Shown here in pieces: positions 1 to 9,681 of a DNA stretch of 64,000 bases. The DNA is from Dehalococcoidia bacterium. GTDB lineage: Bacteria; Chloroflexota; Dehalococcoidia; SM23-28-2; RBG-16-64-32. Position 1 is the stretch's first letter; every line of letters begins with the position of its first letter. Location of the stretch: the NCBI GenBank assembly GCA_963665775.2, contig CAXXTF010000001.1, forward strand, positions 608,001-672,000, written 5' to 3'. The notes under the pieces were generated by a model. The model worked only from the letters and a program-made list of their open reading frames with translations, searched no databases and was not told the DNA's origin. The translations under genes and the position numbers were made by a program.

Positions 1-966
1 TGACTTCGGATCGGCCAGGAGGCCCAGGTGTATGGGCCAGTTCTTGCCCAGCTCCCAGGGATCCAGGTCGATGTGCGCTATGGTCGCCTCCTCCGGAAAG
101 GGAGATTCGTCTATGGGGAAGAGCAGCGGCAGGACGGACGTGCCGACGGCCAGGATGAGATCGGCGGAGGAGAGCTGGCCCCTGAGGCCGGGGCCGGAGA
201 TGGCGTTCAGGAGCCCCCCGTAGAGGGGATGGTCAGAGGGGAAGGGGAGTTCGGCGGAGAAGGAGGCGTGGACACGGGCGCCGATGCTCTCGGCGAGCTG
301 GACGAGCTCCGGCTGGGCGCCTGAGACGGCGACGCCATCACCGCAGATGATGAGGGGCGATTTGGCCTGCGCGATAAGCTCGGAGAGGCGCTCGACAGCT
401 TCTGGGTCGGGCCGCGGCAGGGCGCTGGCGTAGGCGGCGGGAACGATCTCCACGTCGGCCTCTTCGTCCATCAGGTTCGTGGGGACGGAGAGGAAGACTG
501 GGCCACGGGGAGGGTCCATGGCTACTTTGAACGCTCGTCGCAGGAGGAGGGGGATCTCGGCTGGGTCTTGCGCTTCGACTGCCCACTTGGTGACGGGCTG
601 AGCCAGCCGAACGAGGTCGCCGGCCAGGATCGGCTCCTGGGAGGCGCCGCGCTGGGGGTGCTGGCCGGCGTACAGTACCAGGGGTGTGTGGGTGCGGAAG
701 GAGTTGTAGAGCATGCCCATGGCGTTGCCCAGGCCGGGCATGATGTGGAGTTGGACGAAGGCGGGGCGGCCGCTGGCCCGAGCGTAACCGTCGGCGATGC
801 CCAGGGCGACCCCCTCGTGCAGGGCGAGGATGTAACGCAGCTGCGGGTAGTCCTGAAGGGCGTCCATAAACGCCTGTTCCGTGCTGCCGGGGTTTCCGAA
901 GACGTGCGTGACGCCCTCGGCGGTTAGCTGCTCGATCAGGGCCTGACGTCCGCTCAGCCTGGGCAT
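1..966 (-). CDS. Thiamine pyrophosphate-binding enzyme (benzoylformate decarboxylase/acetolactate synthase-like), runs off the window edge
   Basis: Manual translation from ATG at 966: MPRLSGRQALIEQLTAEGVTHVFGNPGSTEQAF...LHEGVALGIADGYARASGRPAFVQLHIMPGLGNA...GPVFLSVP. AAGGAG RBS upstream. Not in the ORF track because there is no stop in the window. Confidence 0.9.
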   Translation of the reverse strand, partial: MPRLSGRQALIEQLTAEGVTHVFGNPGSTEQAFMDALQDYPQLRYILALHEGVALGIADGYARASGRPAFVQLHIMPGLGNAMGMLYNSFRTHTPLVLYAGQHPQRGASQEPILAGDLVRLAQPVTKWAVEAQDPAEIPLLLRRAFKVAMDPPRGPVFLSVPTNLMDEEADVEIVPAAYASALPRPDPEAVERLSELIAQAKSPLIICGDGVAVSGAQPELVQLAESIGARVHASFSAELPFPSDHPLYGGLLNAISGPGLRGQLSSADLILAVGTSVLPLLFPIDESPFPEEATIAHIDLDPWELGKNWPIHLGLLADPKS

Positions 967-1054
967 GGCAGGGGCTCCTTTCAGGTGAAGAGTATCACAG
1001 GGTGGGCGGTCCAGAGGCCGCGTTTTCGTCGTCTCGATGGCGGACACGGCAACC

Positions 1055-1080
1055 GGTCGAAGGTTGCGCACCCCTCGACC
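1055..1080 (-). terminator. Hairpin just outside the att repeat, possibly the original terminator of the tRNA-Gln/Glu operon
   Basis: GGTCGAAGG-TTGCGCAC-CCCTCGACC near-perfect stem, lying directly downstream of the tRNA 3' end in the pre-integration state. No clear U-tract. Confidence 0.35.
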
Positions 1081-1093
1081 CTTCTGTTCGCTA

Positions 1094-1107
1094 TGGTGGT
1101 GCATACG
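1094..1107. repeat. att core repeat (copy of tRNA-Glu 3' end)
   Basis: 13/14 identity to 9105-9118. Confidence 0.85.
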
Positions 1108-1160
1108 TCCGCCGTATTGCGTCCTATTTCATAGCTAAATCACGGGATATTCTTCCTGTC

Positions 1161-1182
1161 ATATAACAATTCATACACCATT
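1161..1182. promoter_or_regulatory. Putative integrase arm-type binding sites, left end
   Basis: ATATAACAATTCATACACCATT matches ATATGCCAATTCATATGCCATT (8960-8981) at 18/22; both lie just inside the att cores. Confidence 0.6.
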
Positions 1183-1419
1183 ACGAGTTGGTATTCTCTA
1201 GAACGCTAGGGGCCAAATTGGACGTTACTGGATTGTAGAGTGTCCGATAGATTCTCTCCTACGACGAGACAGGGATCGGAAGAGCTGGTCTCTAAGTTGG
1301 AGACCCTGAAACTGGCCATGGTGCTGCTGGAGGCTTCGGGTTGACCTTGCCCCCGAAAACAAGTCCAGGCCCAATGTTAGTAATCAGGGGTTCTGGACCA
1401 GAGAAAGGGGGCAGAAGGA

Positions 1420-1698
1420 TTGGGCAGGCAGCATCACACGGCAGAGGAGATCATCAACAAGTTGAGGGAGGCGGAGGTCGGGCTGGCTAAGGGCCTGGCT
1501 GTGCCCGAGGTCTGCAGGAAGCTGGGCGTGGCAGAGCAGACCTACTACCGCTGGCGGAAGGAGTAGGGCGGCCTGAGGAGGGAGCAGGCCAAGCGGCTGC
1601 GGGAGCTGGAGCAGGAGAACCTGCGGCTGAAGAAGCTGGTAGTCGATCTCTCCCTGGACAACGCCATCCTGAAGGAGGCGGCGCAGGGAAACTTCTGA
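1420..1698 (+). pseudogene. IS3 OrfA (HTH + leucine zipper) with in-frame TAG at 1564-1566
   Basis: LGRQHHTAEEIINKLREAEV...TYYRWRKE*GGLRREQAKRLRELEQENLRLKKLV; the stop replaces the conserved Tyr of RWRKEYGG. Confidence 0.88.
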
Positions 1699-2584
1699 GC
1701 CCGGCCAAGAGACGACAGGCGGTGGCCTGGGTGCGGAATGCGTTGGGCCACGCGGTCATCTCGGAGCGCCGGGCCTGCCAGGCCCTGGGGCAGGAGCGAT
1801 CGACGCAGCGGCGGTGGGGTTCTCCTCCCGACGATGAAGGGAGGCTGCTGAGGCGGATGGTGGAGCTAGCGACCGAGTACGGGCGCTACGGTTACCGACG
1901 GGTAACCGCCCTGCTGCGAGAGGAGGGTTTTCGGGTGAATCACAAGCGGGTAGAGCGGCTCTGGCGGCGGGAAGGGCTGAAGGTGCGGGCGAAGCAGCCG
2001 AAGCGGAGGCGGCTATGGTTGACAGACGGCTCCTGCGTTAGGCTCAGGCCGACTGAGCCCAACCACGTCTGGAGCTACGACTTCGTGTTTACCCGCACCA
2101 GCGACGGCCGTCCCCTGCGGCTCTTGACGGTGCTGGACGAGTTCACAAGGGAGTGCCTGGCTATCCAGGTGGCGAGGCAGATCACCAGTGATGACGTGCT
2201 GGCACGCCTGGCCCAGCTCTTCGTCGAGCGCGGGACGCCTCGCTACCTGCGCTCGGACAACGGGCCAGAGTTCACGGCACGGGCGCTCCGGACCTGGCTA
2301 GAGCGGGTAGGCGTGCAGACTCTGTATATCGAGCCCGGGAGCCCCTGGGAGAACGGCTACATCGAGTCGTTCAATGGGAAGCTACGTGATGAACTATTGA
2401 ATGGGGAGGTGTTCGACACGGTGCTGGAAGCACAGGTCCTCTGCGAGCGGTGGCGACGGAACTAAACGAGGTGCGCCCGCATAGCGCTCTCGGCTACCGG
2501 CCGCCAGCACCGCAAGCGATCGTGCCATGGCCGGGCTCCACCGCGCCATCCCTGGAGACTACGGCGATGGCCACACTAACATAG
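1695..2584 (+). pseudogene. IS3 OrfB DDE transposase, frameshifted near the C-terminus
   Basis: WSYDF, LRSDNGPEF and PGSPWENGYIESFNGKLRDE motifs. A 1-bp loss near 2463 separates the NEVRPHSALGYRPP tail. Confidence 0.88.
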
Positions 2585-2660
2585 CCTGTGGTAGCGTTTA
2601 GGGGGGCAGGTCACTCACCAGAGTTGCCTTGCCTTTGTGTCCGCTACTTTCTGTTGAGGA

Positions 2661-3722
2661 TCAACCCTTGCAATTGGGCGCTCCGTCCATGGTCACGGTC
2701 GGCAGGATTTCGTGGACGCGCCTCTGGGCATCATGCTCTAGGTGCCTAGCCAGTAGACGGTCAACGGTCCGCACCTTCCTCACACCAAGCACCGACGCTA
2801 CTTCATGGTCGGAAAGGCCGCTGGCCCTTAAGTAATAGGCGAAAGCCGACCTGAGTTCAGCTGCTGTCATTGCCGGCACACCTACACGAGAGCAGGCTTC
2901 CCGGACGGTATCTCGGACGGCTCGCGAAGTCAGCGGTTTGGGGTCGCACCTACCCCGTGGGAAAACGTAGCCTTCCGGTCCCACTGGCGGCTGATTGGCC
3001 AGGTGGGTTTTAAGGTGGAACATGGCGTCATTAATGATCCGTAGCCTCAACGGCCTGCCGCTTCGCCATACCTCCACCAACATTGGAGTTGGCTCATGAT
3101 CTCGGAAGAGTTGGCGGGTCTTAAGCGTCACTATTTCTCTAGGATGCAGTCCGGTGAAGCAGTGCAGGGCTAGGAGAGAGCGATTTCGGATGTCCCTGTA
3201 GTTGCTTCCGGGAAAGGCCTTCTCGACCAGTAGTTTGAGCTCTGCAGGCGATAGAGTGGGATTTCGTGGGCGTCTCCTACTCTTGGCTCCAGCGACGATC
3301 GTGCCCGCGTCATGCCACGAGCCGTTCCCCTTGGACGGCAGGAGGGCGTCAAGGGAGCTCATGAAGGCGTGGGCGTCCGGCACTTCCACGTCCGCACCGC
3401 AGAGCGCTACGAACCTGTGGGCGGCGATGAGTCTCGTGCGTCCCGCGGACGCCGATATCCAGGTTGACGGGTGGAGCAGGATGTCGCTCAGGATGCCTGG
3501 ATTCCGGAAGATTGTGGAAGGTGTAAAGTTCCTTCTCTGGGCCTCTCGGAAGAGACTTTTAAGCTGCGAGACCTCCTTCTCAACCGTTGCCCCGCTGCAG
3601 CCCTCGCTGGGTCTGCGTCTGCGGTACAGTCGAAGGAGATCCTCCGACTGGGCATCGACCGGGCTCTTGGTGTTTACAGAGCGCCGGTCTAGGGCCGCCA
3701 ACTGAAAGAGAGGCTTCTGCAT
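2661..3722 (-). CDS. Tyrosine recombinase-fold protein with degenerate active site
   Basis: Box I RNRSLLALHCFTGLHPRE (R>H). Box II TAAELRSAFA (HxxR>AELR), LGV (H/W>V), TVDRLL (Tyr absent). ORF intact, 353 aa. Confidence 0.85.
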   Translation of the reverse strand: MQKPLFQLAALDRRSVNTKSPVDAQSEDLLRLYRRRRPSEGCSGATVEKEVSQLKSLFREAQRRNFTPSTIFRNPGILSDILLHPSTWISASAGRTRLIAAHRFVALCGADVEVPDAHAFMSSLDALLPSKGNGSWHDAGTIVAGAKSRRRPRNPTLSPAELKLLVEKAFPGSNYRDIRNRSLLALHCFTGLHPREIVTLKTRQLFRDHEPTPMLVEVWRSGRPLRLRIINDAMFHLKTHLANQPPVGPEGYVFPRGRCDPKPLTSRAVRDTVREACSRVGVPAMTAAELRSAFAYYLRASGLSDHEVASVLGVRKVRTVDRLLARHLEHDAQRRVHEILPTVTMDGAPNCKG

Positions 3723-4759
3723 TTATCCGGTGGTTCCCTGTTGGCTTGGCTGCTGGCCGCAGCCATCTTCTCGGCGATGCTACGCACCTGAGGTCTGATG
3801 TAGTGATCGTCCATCCGTTCCAGGCCCTGCCATCCTCCGGCCAAGGCCACTGTATATCGTGGAAGGATCGCTGCCGCCTCGCTGGCGAACGCACGCCGGA
3901 AGGCATGCAGGCGGTAGGCGCGGGTTCCGGCGGCGAGGCAGGCCTTCTGGAACGTTTGCCGAACGTTGGGGTAGGACCATTGTGCGATCCAAGTGCTTCG
4001 CCAGAGGGTGGTACTTTCGCCTCCGATGAGCTGCTCTAGCGTGCCATGGAGCCATGCCCGCTCATTGAATTCATCGATGTAGGCGAACAGAAGCCTGCGT
4101 GCGTGGGGAGTAAGTTCGATCTCGCGAGGCTGGCAACGTCCCTTGGCGTGGAGCATCAGCCGGGCAGTACCCATCGGAAGCACAACCAGATCGGCGCAGC
4201 TGGCTTCGCGGAGGGCGTTGACCCTGCTGCCACTCTCGTAGAGTATGGTGAAGAACGCCTCGTTGCGGCGTCCCTTGAAGGTCAGTGCTCGGGCGGCCTC
4301 CCGGATGATGGCGGCGACGTCATCGGGGCTCGGTGCCGGGCCGCCTCGGCGGCGCGGCGCCCCGCCGGTCAGGATGAATCGCCCACCAACGCGCAGGGCC
4401 GACCGGCGCAGTGCTACAGTGACGATCCCCAGGGGCTCTCGGCCAGTCAGTCGCCTTAGTTCCGGGCTCATGAGCCTTGCGAAGGATTGGACTGCCGAGC
4501 GGCGTTGGTCCAGCGTCCACTTCGACAGTTGACGTCCCTCACTTGATCTATCGTCTACCAACGCCTGCCCTAAAGCCTCGGGATGAAGGAACAGCGCCAT
4601 GAACCCTTCGGGGCTTGCCGCCGTCTCGGCAAGGGAATGCAGCTGGTAGACGTATGCCTGGACGGTCTTCTTGGCTGCGCCCGTCGCAACCAGCCTGCGG
4701 CGGTAATTCTCCAATTCAGCGCTGGGACGCCGGTTGGCAGTTGCTTGACGCCTCGCCAT
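3689..4759 (-). CDS. Tyrosine recombinase with complete catalytic set
   Basis: RNEAFFTILYESGSRVNAL (R), HAKGR (K), LHAFRRAFAS (HxxR), AGGW (W), DDHY (Y). Start taken as ATG 4759 (MARRQ); the ORF track extends upstream. Confidence 0.88.
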   Translation of the reverse strand: MARRQATANRRPSAELENYRRRLVATGAAKKTVQAYVYQLHSLAETAASPEGFMALFLHPEALGQALVDDRSSEGRQLSKWTLDQRRSAVQSFARLMSPELRRLTGREPLGIVTVALRRSALRVGGRFILTGGAPRRRGGPAPSPDDVAAIIREAARALTFKGRRNEAFFTILYESGSRVNALREASCADLVVLPMGTARLMLHAKGRCQPREIELTPHARRLLFAYIDEFNERAWLHGTLEQLIGGESTTLWRSTWIAQWSYPNVRQTFQKACLAAGTRAYRLHAFRRAFASEAAAILPRYTVALAGGWQGLERMDDHYIRPQVRSIAEKMAAASSQANREPPDKCRSLSFSWRP

Positions 4760-4815
4760 CGAACGGATTTCCACCGGCGATACGCCGGTTCCGGCAAGAG
4801 ATGGCTGAAGGGCTA

Positions 4816-5729
4816 TCAGCACCGATCCCTCCCATCCGAAACTCGCGAGCTCGGCAAGGCGCCTCCGTCCTTGAGTTGGGCCTCCAGCTCCCTGATCTGC
4901 CGGATGGCCCCTCTGTGCCTGGCCTCGAGGTCGCTGTACTTTCCCTGCCACTGGTTGATGCTGGATTGTAGACCTCGGTTGGTCTCACGCTGCCTGGTGA
5001 ACTCCTCCTCTCGCTCCAGCGTACTCCCGGTCTGGGAACGGATGAACCGCACCCGGGCCTGCAAGTCCTCGTTCCGCTCCTTTGCCAACCGAAGCTCAAA
5101 CTCAAGAGAATCCACATGGGCCGCCAATCGCTGCATCCTCGTGGGGGACTTGAGCTCGTCGCCCCGTCTCGCCTGCGTGGCGGCGGCCTTCGCGGACATC
5201 TCCACACTGGCCACCCTGTCTCCCAATCCCGCCTCCTCGGCGGCCAATTCAGCGTTGGATTTGGCCGTCCCCGAAAAGTGGCACTCGGTCCCACATTAGG
5301 TGTTTTCGCGAGGTCATCTGAGCTTTCGGAGGCATTTGGCAGACTCTTGGCTTTGGGCATCCCGGCTTTATACGAGTCCCGGCAGCGCACCACGCAGGCG
5401 GCCTTCTGGCTCGCCGTGAGATGGCGCCGCTCCGCATTGCGGGACACCACGAAGGAGATGGGAGACTCACCGCTGTACGGCTTGAAGATCAATTGGCTGG
5501 CAATGCCCAGGTCGGTTGCGGCGCGATAGCGGTGCCAGCCGTCCAGCACCATGCCGTCCAGGGTCCATATGACCGGCTCGAGCACGCCGTTCGCCTCCAT
5601 GTCGGCAACGAAACTGGAATAGTCGTCCTCGGATCTGTCGCCCCAGATGGATGACAGGTCATGCCGCTTGTCCGGCATCGCCATGTCCTCGGTAAGAAGG
5701 TCTTCATAGTCCAGGTCGAATAGAGTCAT
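4816..5729 (-). pseudogene. ParB/Srx N-terminal domain protein with coiled-coil C-terminus, frameshifted near 5290
   Basis: SFVADMEANGVLEPVIWTLDGMVLDGWHRYRAA...FVVSRNAERRHLTASQKAA. Continues in another frame as AKSNAELAAEEAGLGDRV...LEFELRLAKERNEDLQAR. Confidence 0.75.
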
Positions 5730-5749
5730 CGAAGCCCCCTGCGGCATTG

Positions 5750-5781
5750 GAAACTTCCGTTTATGACGCGAAACTTCCGTT
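5750..5781. repeat. 12-bp direct repeat GAAACTTCCGTT x2 (20-bp period) upstream of the ParB-like gene
   Basis: Exact copies at 5750-5761 and 5770-5781, followed by (TAG)4 at 5789-5800. Confidence 0.7.
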
Positions 5782-5946
5782 CTTGGCTTAGTAGTAGTAG
5801 GCGCAATCACTAGGAAGCACTTGGCAGGGAGCAATCCGTGGTCGTGCCAGATAACGCAGCTCGATTCGCTCTGACGCCTAGGTGGTTGGGTGGAGGGCGT
5901 GGCATGCGTGATGATCATTCCAGGCTCTCTGTTGTTCATTGGCGGA

Positions 5947-6162
5947 CTACTCAACCGCTGCGGGGTCGTAGGCACGTTCCGGCGCCGCCAGCCAGCCGTC
6001 GATGTCCGCCAGCCTCCAGCCGACTGACCGGCGGCCCAGGCGCAGCGGCTTCGGGAACCGGCCCTCTGTCATCAAGGGGTAGATGGTGGCCCGGGAAAGG
6101 CCGGTAAGAGCTTCGACTTCTTGACGCCGCAAGATCCGCCGGGCCTCAATCTCTGACTTCAT
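5947..6162 (-). CDS. alpA: AlpA-family excisionase/transcriptional regulator
   Basis: RILRRQEVEALTGLSRATIYPLMTEGRFPKPLRLGRRSVGW; GGAGG RBS. Confidence 0.92.
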   Translation of the reverse strand: MKSEIEARRILRRQEVEALTGLSRATIYPLMTEGRFPKPLRLGRRSVGWRLADIDGWLAAPERAYDPAAVE

Positions 6163-6257
6163 GAGCACCTCCAAGTTCCTGATCGCCTCTTCTGCCTATG
6201 ATCAGAAACCCGGTGGGTACTTGTCATGGATTGGAAAATGGCCGATTTTCTGAGCCT

Positions 6258-6334
6258 TTTTTGCCCCACGGGTGCGAATATCGAAGTTTATGGGGCAAAA
6301 ATGCGGCTGTCCCGAAGAGAATTAATGCCCCACG
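6258..6334. promoter_or_regulatory. Operator-like repeats upstream of alpA
   Basis: TTTTTGCCCCA (6258-6268) and TGGGGCAAAAA (6291-6301) form an inverted pair; TGCCCCACG is repeated at 6262 and 6326. Confidence 0.5.
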
Positions 6335-6427
6335 TCCTAGTCGCCAAGGATCGGGGGCGACGGTAAAGGGACGGCGAGGCCCGGTGCGGGACCCTGCGAG
6401 CTATAGGGACATGCTGTGGGGGAAGCT

Positions 6428-7717
6428 CTAGCCCAAGTAGGAATACGGGCGACGACCGCCCCGAAAATGTCGTCCTACAAGAAAGAAGGTTGGAGTGTCC
6501 GGCACACTACCATCGAATTCTTCCAAGAGGTAGTCCTCGGCCTCATCAACGTCGATGTGCTCAAGCCCACTTATGCCTCCTTGCCCCCGGAATTTGAACC
6601 ATATCCGCTTCACGGTGTAGAACGAGAGGCCCGTGGCCCGTGCAACCGCGTCGCAGGCGCTCGCCGATTGGGACGGCTCGTCATTGCGTGTTGGCTTCAT
6701 GCCTAGAGCCATGAGCTCCCGTATTGCCTTCTGGATCGTGAAGGAGCGGAAGGGGACCGTAGGTCGGCCCCTCTTCGACAATGGGCGGCTTATCCTTCGT
6801 TCCAAGGCGTCGTTTCGCCACTTCATCAGATTTGCAGGGATCTCATCGCCTTGATGCTCGACACCATAGCTTAGTCGTTCGTAGATGAGCTGAAGCGCGT
6901 CCCACCTCACTGCGTTGTTTCGTGACTCGGCAATGAGCATGCCGGGCTCTTCTAGCTTGCTTCCCCTGAAGAGCCAACCCTTTGCGAGTGCGCGCGCCGC
7001 GTCCTTCGCTGTCCGGCGAATTGACGATGCAACTTCCAGCAACGGCTTGATGATAACGACGGCTTCATCGACTGTCGGCGGCGTCTTGCTATTCTTCCAC
7101 CGGTCCCTGCATTGCGCGTATGTCCAACCTGCTTCGGACGCCTCCCACGATTCCCGCGTTGCCTCCTTGAACTCTAGCAAAGCCTGACGCCCTGCGGCGA
7201 AGTCTCCGGCCATGATTGCTTGCTCCATCCTCTCCTCGAGCTCAGGGGCTCTATACACGCAATAGATGATCAACAGGTCAAGATACGAAAGGCCGAAGAG
7301 AGAATCAGGAAAGGACGCCTGCGAAGAACGTTGGATAGAGATGGGTTCAGCGACTGTCGGCGCGATCTGATAGGTTAACCGTTGTGCTAATATTGCGGAT
7401 TCCAGCGCTCCCATAGTCGCTGCGAAGCCTGTGAAGCCTCGAATGACCGGCGCGCATTGTACTGTCAGCGCTCTTTGGGTTGTTGCAATGTGCCTAACGA
7501 GCGGGTCGAGGGTTGCATTCAGCGCTTCCATAGTCGCTGCGAAGTCTCTAAGGAATGGGGCGAGTCGTTCTGTCAGTGGTCGTTGAGTTGCTGGACCATC
7601 CGGCACCGATAGCGGTATCAACGCCTCTGCCACCGTTTTCTTACGTCCCAGCATGGCCTTAGGGGACGGGGACGGCGACGTCCACGGGCTGATCGGCTGC
7701 GTCGTCCGCTCCTTCAT
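6428..7717 (-). CDS. Hypothetical protein with putative C-terminal HTH
   Basis: 429-aa ORF between integrase and alpA. C-terminal SACDAVARATGLSFYTVKRIW; internal FAATM(E/G)AL duplication. Confidence 0.6.
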   Translation of the reverse strand: MKERTTQPISPWTSPSPSPKAMLGRKKTVAEALIPLSVPDGPATQRPLTERLAPFLRDFAATMEALNATLDPLVRHIATTQRALTVQCAPVIRGFTGFAATMGALESAILAQRLTYQIAPTVAEPISIQRSSQASFPDSLFGLSYLDLLIIYCVYRAPELEERMEQAIMAGDFAAGRQALLEFKEATRESWEASEAGWTYAQCRDRWKNSKTPPTVDEAVVIIKPLLEVASSIRRTAKDAARALAKGWLFRGSKLEEPGMLIAESRNNAVRWDALQLIYERLSYGVEHQGDEIPANLMKWRNDALERRISRPLSKRGRPTVPFRSFTIQKAIRELMALGMKPTRNDEPSQSASACDAVARATGLSFYTVKRIWFKFRGQGGISGLEHIDVDEAEDYLLEEFDGSVPDTPTFFLVGRHFRGGRRPYSYLG

Positions 7718-7744
7718 GTCGTCGAACCGTCGGGCCTGCTCACA

Positions 7745-8980
7745 CTATAAGCCACGTCGCACCATCGGGACGGCTATTCCGGCCCTGTCACTCAGATACT
7801 CTGCCCACTGCGCCATGAGCCGCCGTCGCCGCTCGAACAGGTCAGACCTGGCGTAGGCAGCCTCCGTCGTGTTGGCAACCACGTGCGCAAGTGCCGCCTC
7901 CATCACCGCGTGCGGCGTGTCCGTACGCTCAGCCGCCCAATCCCGAAAGCTGGACCGAAAGCCATGGGGGACGGCATCGATGCCCAGCTTCCGCAGGAGG
8001 TTTCTGTGCGTCATGTCCGAAAGGGCCCCTCCGGATCGCGGTGCGGGGAATATCAGGATGCTCTTGCTGTCGAGACTCCTGGCCCCGTCCAGGACTTCGA
8101 GCGCCCGCCCTGACAGAGGGACGCGATGTTCGCGCCCGGCCTTCATCCGCTCAGCAGGCACGGTCCATGTCTCAGAGCCGGAGTCCACTTCCTCCCATCT
8201 TGCCTGACGCACTTCCCCGGAACGGGCAGCCGTCAGGACGAGAAACTCGAATGACAGCTTGGTGACTAGCGCAGCATACGACTCCCGGACAGATCGTAAC
8301 ACTTCTCCAACTTCTGAATATGGTACTGTCCGGTGGTGGGTGGCGATCCGGGGGCGCCGGGGCAACGCCTGGCTGATGGCCTTGCCAGCTGGGTTGTCGG
8401 TGCGGAACCCGTTTGCCACTGCCCAGTCCATGACTGCCGAGATACGCTGCTTTACTCGCCGGGCGGTCTCCGGCTTGGCTGTCCAAATCGGGGTCAACGC
8501 GGAGAGAACGTCCTGGCCGCTCACCTCATCAACAGGTAAAGCTCCAAGCCTAGGGAAAGCGTAGGCCGACAGCGTCATCTCCCATTGGTAGACGTGCTTC
8601 GCGTTGCTCCAGGTAGGACGGTGGAAGTCGATCACCTGCCTCGCCGCCTCGGCGAATGTGGGCACGGCCCGACGATGCTTCTCCGCGATCGGGTTGCCCC
8701 CCTCTCGGGCAAGCTTACGGTTCGCTATGGCCTTTTCTCTTGCCTCGTGGAGCGACACTGTGGCACAACCGCCGAGGCCCAAGTTGCGCCGCTTCCCACG
8801 TATGACGATACGCTGTACCCACCGCTTGGCTCCTGAGGGATCGACGAGGAGATAGAGTCCGTTTCCGTCAGCGTACATCCCCGGCCGCCTCTCGGTGCGC
8901 ACACGTGCTGCCGAAAGGGCATTGATCGGATGCTTGCCTTTGCTCTTAGCACCTTTAGTATATGCCAATTCATATGCCAT
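7745..8980 (-). CDS. intA: P4-like phage integrase (arm-binding domain + tyrosine recombinase)
   Basis: YADGNGLYLLV...KRWVQR, LTAARSGEVR, MKAGREHRVPL, PHGFRSSFRDW, LAH...AAYARSDLFERRRRLM. Adjacent to tRNA. Confidence 0.96.
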   Translation of the reverse strand: MAYELAYTKGAKSKGKHPINALSAARVRTERRPGMYADGNGLYLLVDPSGAKRWVQRIVIRGKRRNLGLGGCATVSLHEAREKAIANRKLAREGGNPIAEKHRRAVPTFAEAARQVIDFHRPTWSNAKHVYQWEMTLSAYAFPRLGALPVDEVSGQDVLSALTPIWTAKPETARRVKQRISAVMDWAVANGFRTDNPAGKAISQALPRRPRIATHHRTVPYSEVGEVLRSVRESYAALVTKLSFEFLVLTAARSGEVRQARWEEVDSGSETWTVPAERMKAGREHRVPLSGRALEVLDGARSLDSKSILIFPAPRSGGALSDMTHRNLLRKLGIDAVPHGFRSSFRDWAAERTDTPHAVMEAALAHVVANTTEAAYARSDLFERRRRLMAQWAEYLSDRAGIAVPMVRRGL

Positions 8981-8981
8981 T
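8960..8981. promoter_or_regulatory. Putative integrase arm-type binding sites, right end (ATATGCCA x2)
   Basis: Tandem 8-mers 12 bp apart overlapping the integrase start; similar to 1161-1182. Confidence 0.6.
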
Positions 8982-9104
8982 TCTTATGAGATTCTAGCAG
9001 AACGCATGAGCCAAGTCAAGCCTCTTAGGGCAGTGAATCAAGACTAATTCAGGTAGAGGATGGGTGATAAGAGGATGCTCTTCAAGGAAATCGGAAGGGG
9101 ATAG

Positions 9105-9181
9105 TGGTGGCGCATACGGGATTCGAACCCGTGATCTCCGCCTTGAGAGGGCGGCGTCCTGGGCCACTAGACGAATGCGCC
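9105..9181 (-). tRNA. tRNA-Glu (CTC)
   Basis: GGCGCATTCGTCTAGTGG...CCGCC-CTCTCAA-GGCGG...GGTTCGAATCCCGTATGCGCCACCA. Confidence 0.97.
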
Positions 9182-9186
9182 AGGAT

Positions 9187-9260
9187 TGGCTGCGGGACTA
9201 GGATTCGAACCTAGACTAACTGATCCAGAATCAGCCGTGCTACCATTACACAATCCCGCA
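9187..9260 (-). tRNA. tRNA-Gln (CTG)
   Basis: TGCGGGATTGTGTAATGGTAGCAC-GGCTGA-TTCTGGA-TCAGT...GGTTCGAATCCTAGTCCCGCAGCCA. Confidence 0.97.
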
Positions 9261-9681
9261 GGGACAAGCTGATTCTAGCAAAGTGCCGCTAGGCGGGCAA
9301 ACGCCGAGAACGGCTATGGGTCAGGCAATGATACCTGGCTACCGCAGACTTCGTCGGGCCGCCTTCAGCCTCTCTATGGCGGGCTCGCCCGTGATCGATT
9401 TCCAGACTCGGCAGGCCGTCCAGGGGTACCTTGAGCCGGAGTGAAGGCCGCTGGCAGCAGTCCGTTGTCGCACATTTCGACGATGGCTAGGAAGCCGTCC
9501 TCAAGGGAGGGGAACTGGTAGATCCTCAGGTGCCTTTTAGCTATCTACGCCTCGTCGCCGGAATATAAAGGATCCTTCGATTGACTGCGTGGCCTCGAAG
9601 CCCCATACTGCCGTCTGCGGAAGCACACTAGCTATTTATGCCGCGACCGGTCTGCACTGCATCTGAGGAGGAGGAAGCGCG

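Follow-up and report, generated by a model that had tools for sequence, protein, structure and literature searches.

An overlapping pair of recombinase genes

The stretch of DNA considered here, hereafter the window, comprises 64,000 nucleotides of the genome of a Dehalococcoidia bacterium of the phylum Chloroflexota (assembly GCA_963665775.2, contig CAXXTF010000001.1, positions 608,001 to 672,000 of the forward strand). On its minus strand lie two overlapping genes with the tyrosine recombinase (YR) fold, designated A and B, which belong to a mobile island and which may encode the two subunits of a single recombinase, only one of them able to cut DNA. The pair and the features that bear directly on it are the following.

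3689 to 4822, minus strand: gene A, Xer-like YR, 377 aa from GTG 4822 (356 aa from ATG 4759)
2661 to 3722, minus strand: gene B, ATG start, 353 aa, catalytically dead paralogue of A
3689 to 3722, minus strand: 34-bp overlap of the 3' end of A with the start of B
4773 to 4789, no strand: palindrome with 7-bp arms and a 3-bp spacer, within the conserved N-terminal coding part of A

Two co-oriented open reading frames (ORFs) with a 34-bp overlap had been recognised in a preliminary description made from the sequence alone, and the ORF list places them as such; the overlap suggests translational coupling. There are three candidate starts for A (ATG 4759, GTG 4822 or GTG 4951), with the stop ending at 3689. 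The most likely of these is GTG 4822, because the database cluster that contains A (P0022) is 377 aa long, because GGGAGG stands upstream of this GTG and because the stretch from 4822 to 4759 encodes an N-terminal motif conserved among homologues. Residues of A are counted here from ATG 4759. With the start of A at GTG 4822, the palindrome at 4773 to 4789, which does exist as first described, lies inside the coding sequence of A and not upstream of the pair.

One complete and one lost active site

Both proteins are recognisable as YRs by profile, with scores against PF00589 of 29.1 bits for A and 39 bits for B (Pfam cut-off 27.1); A also has a Pfam match to a SAM-like N-terminal domain, near the threshold. 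The nearest NCBIfam models are XerC, XerD and XerA, and the scores lie an order of magnitude under the curated cut-offs (A, 37.3 bits versus 335 for XerC; B, 29.6 versus 330 for XerD), so that at these equivalog cut-offs neither protein falls among the XerC/XerD/XerA dimer-resolution recombinases. The solved structures nearest to the A and B family profiles are XerD (1a0p), a XerC-like protein (4a8e) and XerA (5hxy).

BLASTP comparison of A with B gave no significant match (best E 0.043). Profile-profile comparison with hhalign aligned the two families over 305 columns with a probability of 99.4% (E 2.3e-21), spanning the N-terminal motif, the N-terminal domain and the Arg-rich linker up to box II, and the B-family profile matches the N-terminal half of A (E 3.3e-10). 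The resemblance in N-termini and Arg-rich linkers that had first drawn attention to the pair is thus homology, and, judged from these profiles, A and B are true, ancient paralogues related beyond the general YR fold.

The catalytic set of A (R179, K206, H285, R288, W310 and Y320) is invariant in 26 of 26 aligned family members; the R-K-HxxR-W-Y signature reported for the window copy therefore characterises the family, and A belongs to PF00589 by both its profile match and its R-K-H-R-H/W-Y residues. The corresponding residues of B are H193 (Arg I), A288 (His II), V314 (His/Trp III) and L324 (Tyr), and R291 (Arg II) is kept. A word-indexed search for relatives of B returned 21 B-family proteins, and a full HMMER scan of 1.84 billion representatives returned 101 clusters at E<=1e-30 and 309 at E<=1e-10. 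Active-site residues were counted in the 79 full-length proteins (300 aa or more) among the best 150, with the nucleophile column aligned to the Tyr of A via a common Asp three or four residues upstream; an alignment of B to XerD agrees with the column assignments. The counts among the 79 proteins are as follows.

Nucleophile (window L324): Leu 52, Val 7, Thr 5, Arg 4, Phe 3, others; Tyr 0
Nucleophile plus three residues (window H327): Tyr in 5
Box I Arg (window H193): Arg in 39
His II (window A288): His in 6
Arg II (window R291): Arg 47, Lys 8
His/Trp III (window V314): Leu 26, Tyr 16, Val 12, Arg 10, Ile 6, Thr 3, gap 2, Phe 2; neither His nor Trp among these eight commonest

The active-site losses described for B hold for the window copy, and loss of the nucleophilic Tyr extends to every full-length representative; loss of the box I Arg does not extend to the family as a whole, in which about half of the proteins keep it. 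With Tyr in none of the 79 proteins, B is on sequence grounds a member of the YR superfamily by fold and not by chemistry, and its family, read from the same columns, is old and Tyr-less with a former active site that is drifting. Since these features are family-wide, B is no recent casualty.

Selection, linkage and co-divergence

The ratio of nonsynonymous to synonymous substitution rates (dN/dS) was estimated by the Nei-Gojobori method on coding DNA from the loci, for 36 pairs of B sequences with at least 60% identity. Nine of these were set aside: five involving an in-frame TGA in L046, two more L046 pairs with corrupted values, one saturated pair and one nearly identical pair (L038/L039). 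The 27 informative pairs gave values of 0.10-0.41, below 1, the threshold named for this check in the preliminary description, and B is under purifying selection. Three informative pairs of A gave 0.25-0.36. The ORF of B is intact in the window, in a second copy in the same genome and in contigs of other populations.

These results bear on the simplest alternative, namely that B is a recently decayed and functionless duplicate of A. The island around the window pair is indeed decaying, with an IS3 remnant, a frameshifted ParB-like gene and a lost far end (see below), and window B has His at the Arg I position, at which about half of the family keeps Arg. The absence of Tyr from all 79 representatives of a family of more than 100 clusters, the dN/dS values and the intact B frames stand against this explanation, which is scarcely credible; as recent decay it is refuted by the family-wide loss of Tyr together with purifying selection.

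Outside the window, 20 loci with a B homologue were found, of which 10 are informative in having at least 150 nt upstream of B; the others end inside B or 92 nt upstream of it. In all 10 informative loci a homologue of A lies directly upstream of B on the same strand. A second pair, A'/B', stands on another contig of the same genome, with a 4-bp overlap and 31-33% identity to the window pair, and in B' both arginines are lost too. Adjacency of the two genes, likewise named there as a check, is therefore conserved. In a joint tree of 98 rows, from which 8 chimeric or truncated B rows were omitted, the A and B clades split with a support of 100, and the window and second-copy proteins have matching nearest partners. 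Supporting this co-divergence, pairwise identities of A and B correlate over 11 pairs (r 0.947; none of 2000 permutations as high), and over these pairs B is slightly more divergent than A (mean identity 43.5% versus 48.2%). Taken together, these data show a pair that is co-inherited, co-evolving and probably co-translated, with one complete and one dead active site.

Among 401 sampled genomes of the phylum, of which G227 and G344 are unpublished, no genome other than the present one yielded a full-length member of either family; the named records that carry the pair are metagenome-assembled genomes of Thermomicrobiales and Chloroflexia. No homologues of the pair were found in viral contigs or phage records, nor among 72,556 plasmids (PLSDB). 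No fused forms longer than 633 aa were found, which is weak evidence.

RuvC fusions and an N-terminal peptide

Three distant B-like proteins (P0203, P0221 and P0228), each of about 540 aa and Tyr-less, carry a fused C-terminal RuvC domain (PF02075, E 1e-12 to 1.6e-7) in which the acidic motifs are kept, and P0203 is labelled 'RuvABC endonuclease subunit/integrase' in one source. A junction resolvase attached to the non-cutting subunit is what would be expected if the complex halts at a junction. The RuvC-fused form was absent from the 401 genomes of the phylum.

Two further proteins with B-like N-terminal parts, P0166 joined to a kinase/WD40 region and P0198 joined to a type I restriction specificity domain, may be gene-call chimeras and were omitted from the tree.

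The N-terminus of B carries a conserved Qxx[L/I/M/F][F/L] peptide, often QLSLF (window 3708-3722), followed by a variable tail of about 12-18 residues and then by the first conserved helix. Within the first 30 residues Qxx[LIMF][FL] occurs in 28 of 40 core B representatives versus 1 of 58 control ORFs of the window; alignment A3 has it in 21 of its 24 sequences, and 9 of 39 distant B representatives carry it as well. The N-terminus of A carries a related QLxLxG motif that aligns with the B peptide in the profile comparison, and the RuvC fusions have a similar peptide in the linker that leads to their RuvC domain. The peptide of B conforms to the beta-clamp-binding consensus Q-L-x-L-F, a short terminal motif that docks in a pocket of the clamp and which according to excerpts of the literature is used by many transposases; B may accordingly bind the clamp.

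Neighbourhood of the pair in relatives

Fifteen loci extend at least 500 nt downstream of B, and in 10 of them a large serine recombinase gene follows on the same strand. The encoded proteins have Resolvase, Recombinase and Zn-ribbon domains and share only 23-51% identity with one another. The spacer between B and this gene is 200-450 bp long and, in 7 of 8 tested, holds a small gene of the excisionase/MerR-type helix-turn-helix (HTH), XRE HTH or ribbon-helix-helix (RHH) type. The five loci without a serine recombinase comprise three with a divergent RepO-like gene, one of them also with ParA, one with RtcR-like and helicase genes, and one without an assigned neighbour.

In the second copy, the serine recombinase gene and dnaN (L005 6292-7431) converge and share 26 bp at their 3' ends (L005 7406-7431), and the element appears to have been inserted at the end of this clamp gene; in L037 the serine recombinase faces comEC. 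Because the serine recombinase abuts host genes at dnaN and comEC, the module stands at the very edge of the integrated element. The arrangement is reminiscent of DsiB in the ssrA islands of Dehalococcoides, whose module, according to excerpts of their description, likewise includes a ParB-domain gene but has no YR.

Immediately upstream of the second pair, L005 11746-16855 encodes a 570-aa QatC-like, QueC-related protein (PADLOC E 3.7e-51) and proteins of 257 aa and 773 aa without a family; these genes may be defence cargo of the element.

In 10 of 15 loci the pair immediately precedes an HTH gene and a serine recombinase, a position that would suit a different role for B, that of a stand-alone DNA-binding regulator (a repressor, or an architectural or directionality factor for the serine recombinase and element induction), with A acting as an independent homomeric recombinase. 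The free drift of the active-site columns of B is compatible with such a role, and a parallel exists in SPbeta-like phages, which have the Tyr-less monomeric repressor SroF and integrate by a large serine recombinase. Against it, B occurs without A in none of the 10 informative loci, yet without a serine recombinase in 5 of 15; A and B overlap and co-diverge tightly, and fusions to RuvC are unexpected for a repressor. This explanation is unlikely on balance.

The same gene order, two YR paralogues followed by a spacer and a potentially regulated gene, resembles fimB-fimE-fimS, and the paralogues might accordingly invert a promoter located between B and the serine recombinase gene. Such a Fim-like inversion switch is very improbable, since the spacers encode small HTH or RHH proteins, the 10 loci examined do not share inverted repeats on either side of the spacer, and no inversion joints were present in the contigs from public runs that were examined. 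Candidate joints in contigs of public runs (for example 155 to 7660) had sides of less than 30 letters and were not used.

Proposed mechanism

The reading preferred here, to which a probability of roughly one half is given, is that A and B form a two-subunit Xer-like heteromer that acts on an asymmetric site on integrative elements of Chloroflexota, with cleavage by A only. A and B would assemble on an asymmetric DNA site, where B would serve as a non-cleaving DNA-binding and synapsis partner and only the strand pair of A would be cut and exchanged. The product would be a Holliday junction or a single-strand exchange, and the junction could be completed by RuvC-type resolution or by replication. 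Purifying selection on B, co-divergence, the ORF overlap and the RuvC fusions are consistent with such a two-subunit, one-catalyst recombinase.

Chromosomal integration would be left to the serine recombinase and, in the window, to the P4-type integrase of the island, and the pair would most likely act on the element itself, in multimer resolution or in processing of the excised or replicating circle. This role is favoured because integration is already covered and because Rep, ParA and ParB genes are frequent neighbours; we infer that the pair works on an excised or replicating element rather than in chromosomal integration. The RepO-like, ParA or ParB-like neighbours found in other loci fit a role in episome maintenance.

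A more specific version, in which the pair is a replication-coupled half-site recombinase, is doubtful. In it the N-terminal peptides of both subunits (QxxLF in B, QLxLxG in A), each on a variable tail, would bind the beta clamp and so recruit the complex to replicating DNA; A alone would cut, and the junction would be resolved by replication or by a RuvC nuclease such as the one fused to the dead subunit in a sister clade. If true, it would represent a new class of machinery distinct from Xer, from GInt/SE and from integrases.

Several points weigh against the heteromer. Formation of a heteromer and catalysis on one strand pair are steps that we infer, and co-inheritance of neighbouring genes is no proof of physical interaction. 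The palindrome at 4773-4789 was rejected as a recombination site, as it belongs to the conserved part of the A reading frame; the module lacks consistent flanking repeats, and no recombination site was identified. The pair usually stands beside an HTH gene and a large serine recombinase, both of which are missing from the window. The proteins that carry RuvC fall in a B-like clade remote from B itself (E 1e-30 to 1e-39) and were studied as protein sequences. Damaged copies occur, with an in-frame stop in A in L048, a frameshift in A in L049, and disruption of both B and the serine recombinase in L046, and window A itself has Q91 (position 4488) where at least 90% of the family has Arg. SroF of SPbeta-like phages, a Tyr-less protein of YR fold described in excerpts as a monomeric repressor, shows that such a fold can work by itself in repression. 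With GinC, Tfp, TnsF and SroF as precedents for a dead protein of YR fold, the system is also less undescribed than the preliminary description had claimed.

Relation to known systems

The statements made here about GInts, SEs, Tn554, SGI1, SroF, TnsF and the YR-like relaxases follow excerpts of the published accounts. GInt and SE operons resemble the present pair in combining, on an integrative element, a YR-fold protein that has no working catalytic set with active YRs, and in having overlapping genes that suggest coupled translation. GInts can neither excise nor integrate without GinC; the excerpted GInt account gives only its first Arg as missing, and the excerpted SE account describes it as Tyr-less. 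Tfp is the dead YR-fold counterpart in SEs, in which strand exchange is biased, a likeness to the cleavage by A only that is proposed here. The GInt and SE operons differ in encoding two active YRs, a degenerate YR and a small fourth protein (GinD or Srap), in their larger proteins (Tfp >550 aa), and in being reported from Gamma- and Betaproteobacteria; A and B are one active and one dead protein of equal size, are clear paralogues, occur in Chloroflexota and are usually accompanied by an HTH gene and a serine recombinase.

The same holds for the wider definition of Tn554, GInts and SEs, namely two active YRs with a degenerate YR (GinC/Tfp) or TnpC and a small fourth protein at one element end: the loci studied here encode a single active YR, and nothing resembling GinD or Srap was identified at them. 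The pair is set apart from GInt, SE and Tn554 by gene content and published descriptions, not by sequence comparison. RITs are defined by three consecutive YR genes, all with the catalytic motif; here there are two YR-fold genes only, and the next gene is an HTH gene with a serine recombinase, RepO-like, or IS3. The pair is thus neither a RIT nor a Tn554 trio, as the loci carry two YR-fold genes without a third. Membership of such a trio was one of three outcomes that the preliminary description had named as refuting its idea, and none of the three was observed. BIMs consist of a YR and a second conserved protein that is not a YR (SMC-domain type) in Betaproteobacteria, whereas the partner here is a YR paralogue.

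XerC and XerD are likewise paralogues of simple YR architecture that have a SAM-like N-terminal domain and bind one half each of an asymmetric site, but both of these partners keep the Tyr. The pair is not a host dimer-resolution system, because it is found on mobile islands and in two copies per genome. In some Xer reactions strand exchange is the work of one partner alone, and other processes complete the junction.

MpsA and MpsB of SGI1 offer a further parallel, as a two-gene operon of an integrative mobilisable element in which a protein with the YR catalytic set (MpsA) is joined by a non-catalytic, YR-derived DNA-binding partner (MpsB). Modules of this type nick an oriT that lies upstream of the operon and depend on a conjugative helper. 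The pair could accordingly be a mobilisation module in which A, as an atypical relaxase of YR type, nicks one strand of oriT and B is a non-catalytic accessory. Further YR-like relaxases are on record (TcpM and MobK), a relaxase needs a single nucleophile, which suits one active and one dead subunit, and the pair adjoins the integration module, as mobilisation modules often do. However, MpsB has a core-binding-like domain only and the similarity of MpsA is to the catalytic domain, whereas A and B are full length and A, which is closest to XerD and XerA, has its own SAM-like N-terminal domain. No oriT was identified, no conjugation partner in the form of a VirD4-type coupling protein was found in the genome (91% complete), homologues are missing from the plasmids searched, and the RuvC fusions indicate junction resolution. 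A mobilisation function is therefore distinctly improbable.

SroF (YopR) and TnsF of Tn6022 resemble B as Tyr-less YR folds reused for sequence-specific DNA binding. SroF is a lone monomeric repressor and TnsF works with a Tn7 transposase, and in the excerpted accounts neither is paired with an active paralogue. A full-text literature search, with subscription journals outside its scope, yielded neither an active YR paired with a dead YR beside a serine recombinase nor a YR with a clamp-binding motif. The preliminary description had held that the system could be undescribed; publications on GInts and SEs already report a dead partner of YR fold, and the present pair was not found in that literature. 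The pair is a scarcely described two-part recombination module of mobile elements of Chloroflexota.

Only a few elements of proteobacteria (GInt and SE) are known to have multi-subunit YRs in which one partner is dead, and the mechanism of these enzymes is unsolved. The A/B family is the simplest version, with one active and one dead paralogue of equal size; it comprises more than 100 clusters, includes natural fusions to RuvC and may have a handle for the clamp. Questions that it could open to direct tests are how strand exchange is made one-sided by a subunit that does not cut, how the junction is completed, and why elements that own an integrase retain a second recombination module. Annotation would gain as well, since the genes are now named just 'integrase' or 'XerC'.

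The island in the window and its alleles

The island carries, besides A and B, a P4-type integrase gene, an AlpA gene, the gene of a 429-aa protein and a ParB-like gene. Its other features are as follows.

1342 to 2613 (approximate), plus strand: IS3-family remnant with rve and HTH_21 Pfam matches; in-frame stop in the first ORF
4816 to 5747, minus strand: ParB-like gene with a coiled-coil tail, PHROG ParB-like matches; frameshifted at an A-run near 5273
5947 to 6174, minus strand: AlpA-type small HTH gene (PF05930, E 1.1e-21)
6428 to 7717, minus strand: gene of the 429-aa protein; no Pfam, NCBIfam, PHROGs or PADLOC match
7745 to 8980, minus strand: P4-type integrase (Pfam Arm-DNA-bind_3, Phage_int_M, Phage_integrase)
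9105 to 9181: tRNA-Glu, adjoining the P4-type integrase

The island thus has its own P4-type integrase, as first described, and this lies beside tRNA-Glu. Two relatives have only about 0.9 kb between the tRNA-Gln and tRNA-Glu(ctc) genes and the orthologue of the first gene of the window, and from this spacing some 8 kb (1105-9104) were inserted at tRNA-Glu. The aldolase-like gene that relatives (L061) carry between the left-flank gene and tRNA-Glu is absent from the window. No long repeat or direct repeat of the tRNA end that would bound the island was found in window 1000-9400, and no long bounding repeat was found in L005 7000-20000.

The insertion sequence (IS) remnant of the IS3 family starts about 47 bp past the stop codon of B and fills the place of the HTH gene and large serine recombinase of relatives; it has inverted ends and no matching 3-bp target duplication. 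A tblastn search with a large serine recombinase found no trace of such a gene in the window. These features suggest that the far end of the island and the neighbouring host gene were lost by an IS-associated deletion (window 1105-2613). The same island with the same IS junctions is present in contigs from runs of four studies.

The start of the ParB-like gene is placed at 5747 on our own reading. Contigs of public runs X7, X8 and X13 have an extra A behind 5273, and X4 is like the window, so that 3 of 4 runs carry the longer form. The extra A fuses the two ParB-like frames into one ORF whose stop overlaps the GTG of A by 7 nt; with the frames joined and this overlap, ParB-like, A and B therefore read as one coupled operon in those populations. 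The difference in the A-run at 5268-5278 could reflect true variation between populations or a mistake in assembling the homopolymer. Of the two neighbouring genes that had been called broken, the IS3 gene is so by its in-frame stop, and the ParB-like gene is so in the window, but its frameshift is polymorphic and the frame is intact in three of the four runs. Residue 91 of A is Arg in the contigs of X7, X8 and X13, and those of X7 and X8 also have A290T in A and V320L in B. The window allele shows early signs of decay, with the pair still open.

The gene of the 429-aa protein contains internal direct repeats of 28-29 nt (7403/7520 and 7052/7334).

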